Below are positions 13,264 to 17,800 of a stretch of DNA of 59,443 bases, piece by piece (the stretch's first letter is position 1; each line of letters starts with the position of its first letter). A program made the translations under genes and the position numbers. Below the pieces are notes generated by a model. The model searched no databases, was not told the DNA's origin, and worked only from the letters and a program-made list of their open reading frames with translations. This stretch comes from Minisyncoccota bacterium (GTDB lineage Bacteria > Patescibacteriota > Minisyncoccia > Phycocordibacterales > UBA9973), in NCBI GenBank assembly GCA_039915165.1, contig JBDSNU010000018.1:232617-292059 (forward strand), given 5' to 3'.

Positions 13264-14004
13264 ATGAAATTTCACTTTCTGACAATTTTCCCTGAGATGA
13301 TCGAAAGCTATCTTGGTGAAGCAATGTTGAAGCGAGCAGCTGAAAAGAAGCTCGTGGCATTTGATGTGAAAAATATTCGTGACTATACATTGGATAAACA
13401 TAAGAAAGTTGACGAACGTCCTTATGGCGGTGGTCCCGGCATGGTGATGACACCTGAACCAATTTTGCGCGCCTTCAGTGCACTAAAGATGAAAGGTGCC
13501 GCCTCCGCTAAAGCTTCGGCGCGCCAAGGAAAAACTAAAGTAGTAATGCTGTCGCCAACAGGTGCGATGTTCACTAACACTATGGCTGCCAAATGGGCCA
13601 AGTCATACACAGATGTTGTATTTATTTGTGGACGGTATGAAGGAGTAGATGATCGTGTACGCAAAATCTTGAAAGCTGAAGAAGTATCTATTGGTGACTT
13701 TGTGCTAACAGGTGGGGAATTACCAGCATTAGTAATGACTGATGCAATTTGCCGTCAGATCCCGGGAGTATTAGGTACTCACGAGTCTGTTGAAGAAATG
13801 CGCACTGCTAGTCCTCGCGTATTTACTCGTCCAGAGATTTTGGAATGGCCCATCGCCGCGCCGAAGCGATTAGCAAAAGAGGGAAAAGCTTCCTTATCTA
13901 AAACCAAACCGGCTACCAGAGGCAAGAAGCACCTAGTTCCACCCGTACTTATCTCAGGAGACCATAAAAAGATCGAAGCATGGCGCAAAGCGCAGGTCAA
14001 ATAG
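13264..14004 (+). CDS. trmD: tRNA (guanine-N1)-methyltransferase TrmD
   Basis: MKFHFLTIFPEM, VDERPYGGGPGMV, ICGRYEGVDDRV, SIGDFVLTGGELPA. Contains two REP-derived in-frame inserts. Confidence 0.95.
   Translation: MKFHFLTIFPEMIESYLGEAMLKRAAEKKLVAFDVKNIRDYTLDKHKKVDERPYGGGPGMVMTPEPILRAFSALKMKGAASAKASARQGKTKVVMLSPTGAMFTNTMAAKWAKSYTDVVFICGRYEGVDDRVRKILKAEEVSIGDFVLTGGELPALVMTDAICRQIPGVLGTHESVEEMRTASPRVFTRPEILEWPIAAPKRLAKEGKASLSKTKPATRGKKHLVPPVLISGDHKKIEAWRKAQVK
13502..13528 (+). repeat. REP-like family B, in frame in trmD (SAKASARQ)
   Basis: cctccgctaaagcttcggcgcgccaag; 26 nt identical to 52566-52591. Confidence 0.8.
13854..13882 (-). repeat. REP-like family B, reverse copy in frame in trmD (AAPKRLAKE)
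   Basis: Reverse complement cctcttttgctaatcgcttcggcgcggcg. Confidence 0.55.
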
Positions 14005-14033
14005 TTGCATTTCATTACTATTTTTAATAATAT
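14005..14033 (+). promoter_or_regulatory. sigma70-type promoter of sRNA2
   Basis: TTGCAT (14005-14010)-N17-TAATAT (14028-14033), immediately after the trmD stop. Confidence 0.55.
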
Positions 14034-14039
14034 ATTCAT

Positions 14040-14120
14040 ATAGCTTGACGACAGAAACGGCTTGCTGCGGACGTCAGTAATGACGGGCTCATGAGCGCAC
14101 CGCCAACGCTCCTGGCTATA
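14040..14120 (+). ncRNA. Putative ~81-nt structured small RNA (sRNA2), family unknown
   Basis: GC-rich island in an AT-rich spacer. The predicted start coincides with the closing stem (U)AUAGC/GCUAUA. It contains CGUCA-GUAA-UGACG and GAGCG/CGCUC stems, and a terminator follows. Confidence 0.65.
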
Positions 14121-14123
14121 AGT

Positions 14124-14150
14124 AAAAAACCACCTTTTGGTGGTTTTTTA
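14124..14150. terminator. Bidirectional terminator shared by sRNA2 and the 14151-14576 gene
   Basis: aaaaaaccacc-tttt-ggtggtttttt; the stop codon of the convergent gene begins at 14151. Confidence 0.8.
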
Positions 14151-14576
14151 CTATCTTCTAATGTGAATAGATATTATTTCCATACTACTTTCTATTTTTT
14201 CCAGCAGTATTCTTAATTCACCTTTAGTAAGATGTGGATGTTTCTTTGAATAAAAATGTTTAAAATATGGCTCAAATTGGTAAAAATCAAAATTAACAAC
14301 ACTGTCATATAAGTGATTGATAATGAAATAAATAACATTTAATGAATGAAGATTATTATTTTTTGAAAGCCCCGCCTTTCTCCTCTCGACGAAATGTTTA
14401 AGGGCTTTTCGTGAAATATACACTGGTAGACCATTGTGTGGATGGTCTACTTTATTAATAATAAAAAACAGTAATAATTCTGGAGGCTTTTCTATGGGTT
14501 CACTTTCTCCCATATTGAAATATTTGCGTACTAATTTTTTTATCATGCGCAAACTATCCCGTGACCCGTGTTTCAT
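14151..14576 (-). CDS. Hypothetical protein, putative BECR/RelE-like RNase fold
   Basis: 141 aa, AT-rich. Pattern VYISRKALKHFVERR...FYSKK...LRILLE...EIISIH. TACACT lies 6 nt before the ATG. Confidence 0.6.
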   Translation of the reverse strand: MKHGSRDSLRMIKKLVRKYFNMGESEPIEKPPELLLFFIINKVDHPHNGLPVYISRKALKHFVERRKAGLSKNNNLHSLNVIYFIINHLYDSVVNFDFYQFEPYFKHFYSKKHPHLTKGELRILLEKIESSMEIISIHIRR

Positions 14577-14784
14577 TGCCGAAGTGTATTCTTTTCAGAC
14601 TCAAGAAAAAACAAAGATTTTATCTATAGGCTAATGACTATAAGGATATAATTGACAAATCTTTATATTTTGTTTATATTATAACTCTTACAGATTGTGG
14701 AAGGGTTACGGCAGAAAAACCTGTAAATTACGAGAGATTTTATAGTTAACGCCATCAGAGAAATCTGAGGCTATTTTTGGTTCT

Positions 14785-14809
14785 GCCGCCGAAGCCTTCG
14801 GCGAAGGAG
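14785..14809 (-). repeat. REP-like family B in the rpoB leader
   Basis: gccgccgaagccttcggcgaaggag. Confidence 0.55.
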
Positions 14810-14821
14810 CACGTTTAAATT

Positions 14822-17800
14822 ATGAGTAAAGCAATTCCTTTGGGCGCACAGCGTCCGAAAAAGTACTTTTCGAAATATAAGAAACCTCTTGTTGAGTTTC
14901 CAAACCTTATTCAGCACCAGCTTGATTCATTCAACTGGCTTGTAGAAAAAGGCTTGAAAGAAACTTTCAAGGAGTTCACTCCTATTAATGACTACTCTGG
15001 CAAGAAATTCCAATTGGATTTCGTGTCATTTCACCTTGTAGAACCGAAGTTCGACGAACATCACTGCAAAGAAAACAAACTCTCTCTCGAAACACAAATC
15101 AAAGCTCGCGTTAAATTGACCAACAAACAAACTGGTTCTGAAAAGGAGCAGGAAATTTTCATGGCTGATTTACCAGTAATGACTCCACATGGAACATTCA
15201 TCATCAATGGTGTTGAACGTTCAATCATTCCACAGCTCTCTCGTTCAAGTGGTGTATTTTTCACTGAACTCGAAGTGAAAGGCAAGCGTTTCTTTGGCGC
15301 TAAAATCATTCCAAACCGAGGTGTATGGATTGAAATCGAATCTGATCCAGACGGTACTGTGTACGTACGTATCGACAAGAAGCGCAAATTCCCAGTTGTG
15401 TCTCTTTTGCGTGCTCTTGGTTTGACTACAGACGAAGACATCAAAAAACACTTCACAAACGAAACAGCTCAAAAAGTAATTCTTCACTCACTTGAAAAGG
15501 ATGTAGCAAAAACTCCTGGCGAAGCGTTTGTAGAAATCTATCGTAAGCTCCGTGATGGTGACTTGGCTACTGCTGATAACGCTCGTGACTTCGTAAACAA
15601 TCTTTTCTCAGAAGAACGCTATGACCTCTCATCAGTTGGACGTTTCCGTTTCAACAAGCGTTTTGAACTTGATATGGGTGACGCAGAAATGGAACGCAAG
15701 ACATTGTCTGCTGCTGACTTGGCATTGATCGTGAATAACATCATTGCTTTGAACAATACTCCTGGCTCACACGCTGACGATATTGATAACCTTAGTTCAC
15801 GTCGCGTACGTTTCGTAGGTGAAATGCTTCAGCAGAAAATCTACGTTGGTCTTACACAGATCAAGCGTAACGTTCAGGACCGTATGTCTACTATTGATGC
15901 AACAAATGCATTGCCTATTCAGGTGGTAAACCAGCGTCCTCTACAGGCTCGTATTAAAGAATTTTTTACAACAAACCAGCTCTCACAGTTCATGCAACAA
16001 GAAAACGTTTTGTCTGAACTTGAAGAACTACGTACGTTGTCTGCGCTTGGTCCCGGCGGTTTGACTCGTGAACGCGCTACTCTTGAAGTACGTGATGTGC
16101 ACCCATCTCACTACGGTCGCGTATGTCCTATTCAAACTCCTGAAGGTCCAAACATTGGTCTTATCTTGCGTTTGTCTATCTATGCTCGCGTAAACGCATT
16201 CGGTGTTATTGAAACTCCTTATGTAAAAGTTAAAAACGGTAAGATCACTGGCGAAGTTGAATACTTGAACGCAGCTGAAGAAGAAAAAGTTGTTATTGCT
16301 CACGGCAGTAATAAGTACGATGAAAAAGGCAATCTTCCAGAAAATGTTGAAGCTCGTATTCGCACAAACCCAGGTATCGTAAAGAAAGATGAAGTGAACT
16401 ATATCGACGTTGCTCCTAACCAGGCATTCTCTGTTGGTACATCTATGATTCCTTTCGTTGAACACAACGATGCAAACCGTGCATTGATGGGAAGTAACAT
16501 GCAACGACAGGCTGTACCATTGATCCGCCCAGAAGCACCATTGGTTGCGACAGGTGTAGAACAAGATGCAGCACCATACTCAGGCCGTTTGATTATGGCT
16601 GAAGAAGATGGAGAAATCACTTATGTCGATGCTTCTAAGATCACTGTTCGCAGTGAAAAAGGAAAGGATAAGACTCATACTCTTACTTCATTCCAGCGTA
16701 ACAACAACTTCAACGCATTCCACCAGCGTCCAGTAGTAACCATGGGGCAAAAAGTTAAGAAGGGAGATCTTCTTGCTGATACTTCAACTACAGACCATGG
16801 TCAGATCGCTCTTGGTCAGAACATGATGGTTGCATTCATGAGTTGGAACGGTGCAAACTTCGAAGATGCGATTATCCTTTCAGAACGTTTGATCAAAGAT
16901 TCAAAGTTCACCTCAATCTATATTGCTGAATTTACTTCAGTAGTGCGTGATACAAAACTCGGACCAGAGGTAACTACACGTGACATTCCAAACGTTGGTG
17001 AGGCTCGTCTGAAAGATCTTGATGAAGACGGTATTATCCGTGTTGGTGCAGAAGTAAAAGAAGGGGACATTCTCGTTGGTAAAATTACTCCAAAGGGCGA
17101 AACTGAACTTACCCCTGAAGAACGCCTACTCCGAAGTATCTTCGCTGAAAAGGCTCGCGATGTGAAAGACACATCATTGAAAATGGATCACGGCAAGCGC
17201 GGACGTATTATTCGTGTGAAAGTATTCTCACGCGACCAAGGTCATACACTTGAATCAGGTGTGATCAAGAAGATCGTTATTGAAGTTGCACAGCTCCGTA
17301 ATATTTCAGTGGGTGACAAGCTCGCTGGTCGTCACGGTAACAAGGGTGTTATTTCAGTAGTGCTTCCAGAAGAAGACATGCCTTACATGGCAGACGGTCG
17401 TCCTGTTGACGTTGTGCTTACACCGCTCGGTGTGCCATCACGTATGAACCTCGGACAGATTCTTGAACTTCACTTGGGTATGGCGGCAAACGAACTTGGC
17501 TATCAAGCCATCGTGCCTCCATTCGCAGGTGCAACAGATAGTGAAATCAAAGAAGAGCTTGTAAAAGCTGGTCTTCCTGAAAATGGACGTGTACCACTCT
17601 TTGATGGACGAACTGGAGATAAATATGAACAGGACATTGCTGTGGGATACATGTATATCTTGAAACTTCACCACATGGTAGAAGACAAGATCCACATGCG
17701 ATCAATCGGGCCATACTCTTTGATCACTCAACAACCACTCGGAGGTAAGGCGCAAGGTGGAGGTCAGCGTTTCGGAGAAATGGAAGTGTGGGCATTGGAA

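Follow-up and report, generated by a model that had tools for sequence, protein, structure and literature searches.

A convergent structured RNA and a predicted BECR-fold ribonuclease as a candidate type III-like toxin/RNA-antitoxin module in Patescibacteria

Among described systems, those closest to the locus reported here are the type III toxin-antitoxin (TA) systems (ToxIN, CptIN and TenpIN), in which a small pseudoknotted non-coding RNA takes the place of a protein antitoxin to an endoribonuclease, the RNA and toxin genes are separated by a Rho-independent terminator, and the loci are mobile, patchily distributed and found near defence genes. The RNA of these systems is a tandem array of direct repeats of ~34–45 nt, RNA and toxin are encoded in that order within one same-strand operon, and the toxins are of the ToxN/AbiQ, CptN or TenpN families. 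A convergent arrangement is known from type I pairs of Bacillus subtilis such as txpA/RatA and bsrG/SR4, in which the toxin gene and the antitoxin RNA overlap at their 3' ends; the toxins there are small hydrophobic peptides, and the RNAs act through extended antisense pairing that lowers the stability or translation of the toxin mRNA. Phage copies of type III RNAs have been described as pseudo-ToxI (PMC3475682, PMC8860590), which acts as a decoy (PMC3475682). In Clostridioides difficile, the structured RNA RCd22, which carries two abiF motifs, neutralises AbiF, a toxin of the Abi_2/AbiD/F family, through direct binding (bioRxiv 10.1101/2025.04.15.648962). On the side of the toxins, the PBECR domains are defined by a His in a helix together with a C-terminal Ser/Thr (PMC5512222), and the colicin-like group by a Lys-His pair together with a His on the terminal strand (bioRxiv 10.64898/2026.08.28.747851). 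Known BECR members are neutralised by a protein immunity factor or antitoxin (ImmD, RelB, BrnA) or occur as domains of phage polyvalent or MuF proteins.

The gene pair described here lies in a window (the whole stretch of 59,443 nucleotides that was analysed) from a Minisyncoccota bacterium, assigned through its trmD relatives to Candidatus Nomurabacteria (Paceibacteria, Patescibacteria/CPR), where both genes occupy the spacer between trmD, with its stop at 14004, and rpoB, with its start at 14822. Their features, in window coordinates, are as follows.

14005–14033, plus strand: promoter-like site (TTGCAT at 14005–14010, a 17-nt spacer and TAATAT at 14028–14033), read from the sequence
14040–14119, plus strand: small RNA core of 80 nt, representing the reduced ('short') form, without hairpin P3a and the J1/2 linker
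14040–14047 (AUAGCUUG) with 14112–14119 (CUGGCUAU), plus strand: stem P1, with one U.U and one U-G in the window genome
14048–14068, plus strand: junction J1/2, made up of ACGACAGAAA (14048–14057), CGGC (14058–14061) and UUGCUGC (14062–14068)
14069–14089, plus strand: hairpin P2, with CGUCA (14072–14076), a GUAA tetraloop and UGACG (14081–14085)
14088–14092, plus strand: conserved CUCAU, part of J2/3, near-invariant in 26 sequences (UAU for CAU in 3)
14093–14097 (GAGCG) with 14107–14111 (CGCUC), plus strand: stem P3, with the loop CACCGCCAA at 14098–14106
14102–14105, plus strand: GCCA in the P3 loop, 3' strand of the favoured pseudoknot
14124–14149, both strands: bidirectional intrinsic terminator, AAAAAACCACC-UUUU-GGUGGUUUUUU, a perfect hairpin read from the sequence
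14151–14576, minus strand: 141-aa PBECR3/colicin-D-like predicted endoribonuclease of the BECR fold, a candidate toxin by its family motifs, AF2 model, Foldseek and Pfam

Like the type III systems, this pair combines an endoribonuclease, predicted in our case, with a small, probably pseudoknotted RNA and has no protein antitoxin; it likewise has a Rho-independent terminator between the genes, a mobile and patchy distribution near defence genes, and a phage-borne copy of its RNA. However, the pair falls outside the known type III families, differing from them in its lack of repeats, its gene order and the family of its toxin. Its RNA consists of one copy, 80–121 nt long, folded as a three-way junction instead of a repeat array, and Tandem Repeats Finder found no tandem repeats over 13800–14900. 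At every locus the two genes converge from separate promoters, and the terminator between them, in contrast to that of type III loci, is bidirectional. The candidate toxin has a PBECR3/colicin-D-like BECR fold, and in Pfam, NCBIfam and PADLOC the window protein has no ToxN/AbiQ, CptN or TenpN match. With AbiF/RCd22 the pair has in common a structured, non-ToxI-like RNA adjoining a (predicted) RNase-type toxin, whereas the toxin here is of the BECR fold and the RNA has no Rfam match. Its fold class and its arrangement of a helix Lys-His with Ser/His on the last strand are those of the PBECR3/colicin D-like, RelE, ParE and BrnT toxins (PMC5512222; bioRxiv 10.64898/2026.08.28.747851), but the sole conserved partner is an RNA. 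In contrast to the type I pairs, the two transcripts would overlap by the 26-nt terminator only, the candidate toxin is a predicted 141-aa soluble alpha/beta protein, and the RNA has a structured conserved core for which no complementarity to the start region of the toxin mRNA was detected.

The RNA element stands out as a peak of 57% GC between flanks of 25–30%, the GC content of the window being 40%. The promoter-like site begins directly 3' of the trmD stop codon and implies a transcription start at ~14040; it had been overlooked by a promoter scan because its −35 hexamer has only 3/6 matches. A −10 box, mostly of the extended TGnTAnnAT form, lies a few nucleotides 5' of P1 in all 23 homologous loci checked, regardless of the flanking gene, and an A-tract, hairpin and T-tract follow a few nucleotides 3' of P1 in every homologue with enough downstream sequence. 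In the window, the stop codon of the convergent toxin gene lies right beside the terminator, which this gene has in common with the RNA; several Rfam models that contain terminators align to it on both strands. Because its own −10 box and terminator also accompany the RNA in unrelated contexts without trmD, the element is not the 3' UTR of trmD, the read-through explanation that a first-pass annotation of this DNA had kept in view. Judged by these comparisons, the RNA is a genuine non-coding gene with its own promoter and terminator, and computation predicts that it is made from a sigma-70-type promoter and ends at the terminator common with the toxin gene. As for expression, one family member was found as a 151-nt contig in one soil metatranscriptome; a search of RNA-seq data for the window sequence found no run containing it, and the contig itself is present in rhizosphere samples (runs X1 and X2). 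The conserved AUG (in CUCAUG) was considered as the start of a small ORF and rejected, as this codon is AUA in 4 homologues, indels in P3a are not multiples of three, and an early stop occurs in L081; by the same comparison, the RNA is without coding potential.

Homologues were gathered in three ways. An nhmmer search found the element directly after trmD in 3 (L002, L007 and L009) of the closest species representatives; a gapped pattern derived from blocks of invariant sequence and run against metagenomes gave 14 further true copies and one chance match (L082); and protein-first look-ups contributed ten additional loci, an eleventh (L098) having re-found the L084 RNA. The family amounts to 26 distinct sequences, with covariance-model (CM) matches of 38–124 bits in 26 loci. 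Most homologues have a long form of about 97–121 nt, in which the P3 loop contains an additional hairpin (P3a) and the J1/2 linker is longer; the reduced 80-nt form occurs in the window and in L009. The model R1, built from long-form homologues only, finds the window RNA at 50 bits (E ~1e-9). Neither blastn nor R1 detected another copy in the window, and by CM the RNA is single-copy at each locus. The most divergent homologue (L109:1959–2079, minus strand) has an extra AGCA-GAAA-UGCU hairpin inserted in the J1/2 linker, and therefore this linker tolerates insertions, the flanking core staying fixed. At the trmD-rpoB spacer, the RNA/toxin module is present in 4 of the ~10 closest Nomurabacteria, and other close relatives have different inserts after trmD or none; elsewhere the module sits in unrelated contexts. 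The spacer itself (window 14005–14821; L001–L020) is a variable hotspot holding different small ORFs, the RNA/toxin module, or nothing.

In databases, the RNA core in its short or long form had no match to the Rfam 15 covariance models, among them those for self-cleaving ribozymes, riboswitches, tRNA and SRP RNA, either at the gathering cutoff or at E <= 10, where only terminator-type noise appeared. ARAGORN found no tRNA at the RNA site, and searches of IMG/VR (two patterns), INPHARED phages and E. coli genomes returned no match to the RNA. The RNA family is previously undescribed, being unreported in the literature searched and absent from Rfam 15.

The single window sequence decides nothing about the structure, because its fold energy is no better than that of shuffled sequence (z = 0.06) and its minimum free energy (MFE) structure lacks P1; by itself, the MFE fold of most long forms already includes the consensus helices. 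The comparative evidence comes from the CM-based alignment A7 of 26 sequences, in which 95% of cells are paired, compared with 36–46% for slid controls, and compensatory changes occur in 23 of 30 pairs; none of 500 shuffles reached the observed values. Stems P1, P2 and P3, and P3a of the long form, are strongly supported by this covariation, and the RNA is accordingly modelled, by computation, as a three-way junction of P1, P2 and P3, with P3a added in the long form. GNRA-type loops and many G-U pairs identify the plus strand as that of the RNA.

The three stems proposed in the first-pass annotation are all present and conserved in the homologues in which it had suggested looking for covariation. 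Its closing stem AUAGC/GCUAU extends in fact to the eight positions of P1, where compensatory changes were seen in 7 of 8 pairs across the 26 sequences; its CGUCA-GUAA-UGACG hairpin (14072–14085) is P2, with covariation in 4 of 5 pairs; and its GAGCG/CGCUC stem is P3, which is 100% paired and covaries, again, in 4 of 5 pairs. The competing copy of UGACG is also there, at 14046–14050, but its alternative pairing with CGUCA is not conserved and is peculiar to the window, since no other homologue shares its P2 stem sequence. P2 is probably extended by two base pairs, G14069.U14089 and G14070-C14088, the G-C pair being replaced by A-U in L096 and L104. Directly after P2, A7 columns 87–88 (window 14086–14087) are UA in 22 of the sequences but GG in the other 4, namely the window, L096, L104 and L110, both positions always changing together; this dinucleotide at the base of P2 may represent an alternative non-canonical motif.

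Conservation extends to the unpaired positions. ACGACAGAAA is nearly invariant, J1/2 has invariant columns in alignments A3, A5 and A7, and about 40 nearly invariant unpaired nucleotides lie in the junctions around the probable pseudoknot. The unpaired core averages 84% identity; the partner proteins average 39%, with a lowest value of 24%. A local hairpin within J1/2, suggested by MFE folds, was discarded, since the linker varies without keeping complementarity.

The pseudoknot probably forms between CGGC of J1/2 and GCC(G/A) in the 3' part of the P3 loop. These positions are 99% paired, and 24 sequences have CGGC:GCCG without variation; in L009 the pairing is UGGC:GCCA, with the U-A as the sole double change, and in the window it is CGGC:GCCA with a C.A mismatch. 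The covariation in its favour is suggestive, short of proof. A pseudoknot of the P3 loop had been anticipated, with GCGG as the partner; this string exists, one base away from the coordinates assigned to it, at 14067–14070, but is probably the wrong partner. GCGG:CCGC shows no double change, 5 of 24 sequences leave its fourth position unpaired, in long forms that same pair is in conflict with the closing pair of P3a, which covaries, and two of its G's are apparently part of the P2 extension. CGGC:GCCA fits the alignment better.

The 141-aa window protein had no match in Pfam, NCBIfam, PADLOC or PHROGs, a PDB sequence search with the family profile gave no meaningful match, and the protein was not matched in IMG/VR, INPHARED or PLSDB. 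Its family is small, with 113 clusters at E <= 1e-3 among 1.84 billion protein representatives in a profile search. Invariant or near-invariant residues of the family are H45, P46, H47, S55, R56, K60, H61, E64, R66, K111, R122, S136 and H138. One member, P0081, matches Pfam PBECR3 (PF18812) at 35.3 bits (E 1.2e-8), above the gathering cutoff of 30 bits, and is tied to the window protein by the family profile at E 1e-13; P0014 (28.2 bits, 2e-6) and P0003 (22.2 bits, 1.4e-4) match PBECR3 below that cutoff. The AF2 model (pLDDT 91.7) has a helix at 56–70 and four C-terminal strands at 98–102, 106–113, 119–128 and 131–140, i.e., the helix followed by a four- to five-stranded sheet that is a feature of the BECR fold. 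In this model K60-H61 lie in the helix and S136 and H138 on the last strand; all four are invariant, and the layout is the catalytic one of a His in the N-terminal (pre-alpha) helix, frequently after a Lys, with Ser/Thr and also His on the C-terminal strand. By Foldseek, the best PDB matches are the RelE-type toxin BrnT (probability 0.99) and ParE2 (TM 0.57), and the best BFVD matches are phage polyvalent-nuclease and MuF-C-domain proteins (probability 1.0, TM 0.52), with E-values in both databases that are weak (0.01–0.1). The computed signature and fold of the protein are thus those of a colicin-D/PBECR3-like RNase.

The RNA and the protein appear, from their joint occurrence, to be almost obligately linked. 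Starting from the protein, 11/11 homologues with retrievable DNA have a convergent RNA a few tens of nucleotides past the stop codon; among these are proteins sharing only 24–31% identity with other family members, and also members found at profile E 1e-13 and 1e-9. Starting from the RNA, the convergent ORF is present in 13 of 15 assessable distinct loci. Among the 11 protein homologues with DNA, no toxin without the RNA was seen, whereas the RNA without the toxin was found in two cases. No conserved protein partner was found among the neighbours, the upstream genes being rpoB, S16, HTH, RF-1, DUF6922 and others. The pair moves among many genomic contexts and lies repeatedly near AbiEii, YafQ, HicA or PemK genes, which suggests small defence/TA islands at several loci. 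The other TA genes seen within a few kb are at L106:1231–2245, L107:2064–2759, L098:2747–3004, L100:2443–2676 and L109:2461–2850, and comprise AbiEii with DUF6922, YafQ-like, HicA and PemK genes.

In one of the two cases without a toxin gene (L087:73–763 and L095), the RNA is followed by a decayed, 14-aa vestige of the C-terminus of the toxin ORF and then, on the strand of the RNA, by a gene for an NYN-domain (PIN-like RNase) protein, and the toxin seems, from this arrangement, to have been replaced. In the other (L086/L094), the RNA lies in phage DNA from two samples (L094:2267–2373, plus strand; L086:579–685, minus strand), two short contigs of one phage type. An ORF ~540 nt upstream of this RNA (L094:413–1729) matches phrog_1745 'DNA transfer protein' (E 5.5e-89) and A1-like proteins in 1131 phage records. 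The phage RNA retains the full conserved core and has its own, different terminator; by analogy with pseudo-ToxI, it is a possible anti-defence decoy.

Taken together, we hypothesize that the RNA and the convergent 141-aa gene may form a mobile two-gene toxin/RNA-antitoxin module that would work like type III but with a novel toxin fold, a convergent gene arrangement and a pseudoknotted RNA present as one copy, and we give this candidate module about an even chance of being right. It is favoured because of the covarying RNA, the linkage, the predicted RNase toxin, the lack of a conserved protein antitoxin, the mobile and patchy distribution and the precedents of RCd22 and pseudo-ToxI, and a protein-binding RNA antitoxin for the 14151–14576 protein, an idea already raised in the first-pass annotation, is the best-supported reading. 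In addition, the RNA persists without the toxin, yet no toxin is seen without the RNA, an asymmetry expected of an antidote. Counting against the module are the weak Foldseek E-values, the position of the window protein under all Pfam thresholds, the departure from every architectural rule of known type III systems, the higher conservation of the RNA core than of the protein, the thin evidence of expression, and a phage case made up of two short contigs of one phage type. In the proposed mechanism, the near-invariant single-stranded core (ACGACAGAAA, UUGCUGCGG and CUCAU) would bind the RNase, and the bound RNA would occupy or occlude the K60-H61/S136-H138 catalytic site and keep the enzyme inactive. 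If the supply of RNA dropped, e.g., upon transcription shut-off by a phage, the RNA would decay, and the freed RNase would cleave cellular RNA and arrest growth. A phage carrying the RNA alone might use it as a decoy that silences the toxin.

The linkage could also be read as that of a non-toxic ribonucleoprotein, in which the RNA is a dedicated substrate, cofactor or guide of the enzyme and not its inhibitor, for instance by being processed by the RNase or by directing it to other RNAs. An RNA core far more conserved than the protein would be expected if it contacts a conserved cellular partner, and, according to Iyer et al., inactive PBECR domains may simply bind RNA (PMC5512222). However, the catalytic K-H and S-x-H residues are invariant, the pair is patchy, mobile and adjoins other TA genes, the family is very small (113 clusters among 1.84 billion proteins), and the RNA persists without a protein that was itself not seen without the RNA; we consider such a ribonucleoprotein unlikely. 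The difference in conservation (84% vs. 39%) could still mean that the RNA has a function beyond binding the protein. The convergent layout, with its common 26-nt terminator hairpin kept in all loci, would in turn suit a type I-like antisense mechanism, in which complementary 3' ends across the terminator (or read-through) lower the stability or translation of the toxin mRNA. Here the conservation is in the structured core and not in the overlap, the duplex energies between the core and toxin translation-initiation regions are no better than those for control windows, the toxin is a predicted 141-aa soluble RNase rather than a small membrane peptide, and the phage RNA ends in a different terminator and lacks a toxin mRNA as pairing partner, all of which makes antisense control improbable.

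About 40 nearly invariant unpaired junction nucleotides around a probable pseudoknot are, on the other hand, typical of ribozymes and aptamers, and the RNA might itself be a self-cleaving ribozyme or an aptamer whose linkage to the protein is secondary, or an antitoxin released by a ligand or by self-cleavage. Yet neither the short nor the long form matches any Rfam ribozyme or riboswitch at E <= 10, a result that also speaks against the small ribozyme that the first-pass annotation had offered as an alternative; moreover, there is no downstream gene on the same strand to regulate, and the protein partner is retained by the short form despite its loss of P3a and the linker. We see little probability in this explanation. 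As to whether a separate RNA exists at all, a chance GC-rich patch or a trmD 3' UTR would be compatible with the single-sequence fold energy and with the RNA-seq search, in which no run covering the window was found. Set against the covariation, a promoter and terminator conserved without trmD, and CM matches of 38–124 bits in 26 loci, the probability of such an artefact is close to nil.

If the toxin/RNA-antitoxin module is real, it would be a fourth, architecturally different family of protein-toxin/RNA-antitoxin (type III-like) systems, and RNA would prove able to control BECR-fold RNases, for which all antidotes known so far are proteins. It might then be the first TA or abortive-infection class in which a BECR-fold (colicin-D/RelE-type) RNase is restrained by a single-copy pseudoknotted RNA and not by a protein, found in ultra-small CPR bacteria and with its RNA captured by phage as a decoy, a tentative claim to which we give somewhat less than an even chance. 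The orphan RNA in a phage points to an arms race that is still under way. To our knowledge, almost no regulation or phage defence has been experimentally characterised in the Patescibacteria/CPR with their tiny genomes, and the present functional hypothesis for a non-coding RNA in this group is among very few. As a compact, strongly covarying new fold with ~40 invariant junction nucleotides, the RNA is also attractive for structural work.

The near-invariant RNA core may be kept constant through imitating a conserved cellular target of the toxin, for which a tRNA-Met-type anticodon loop is a candidate. CUCAU presumably has the letters of positions 32–36 of a tRNA-Met-type anticodon loop, which is a lead only to a possible toxin target. 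The conserved C-U-C-A-U-(G/A)-R (14088–14094) reads GGGCUCAU in the window and in L110 (L110:672–743), which we take to resemble an initiator-tRNA anticodon arm.

On the far side of the spacer, the 5' leader of rpoB (14652–14800, plus strand) opens with a strong promoter, TTGACA-17-TATATT, 3' of which lies a conserved element, UUACAGAUUGUGGAAGGGUUACGGCAGAAAAACCUGUAA ... AACGCC-hairpin-GGCAUUUUU. This element, which has no Rfam match, is also present upstream of rpoB in L001, L002, L003, L006, L007, L009, L026, L096 and L104, and is a candidate for a cis-regulatory leader or an attenuator.
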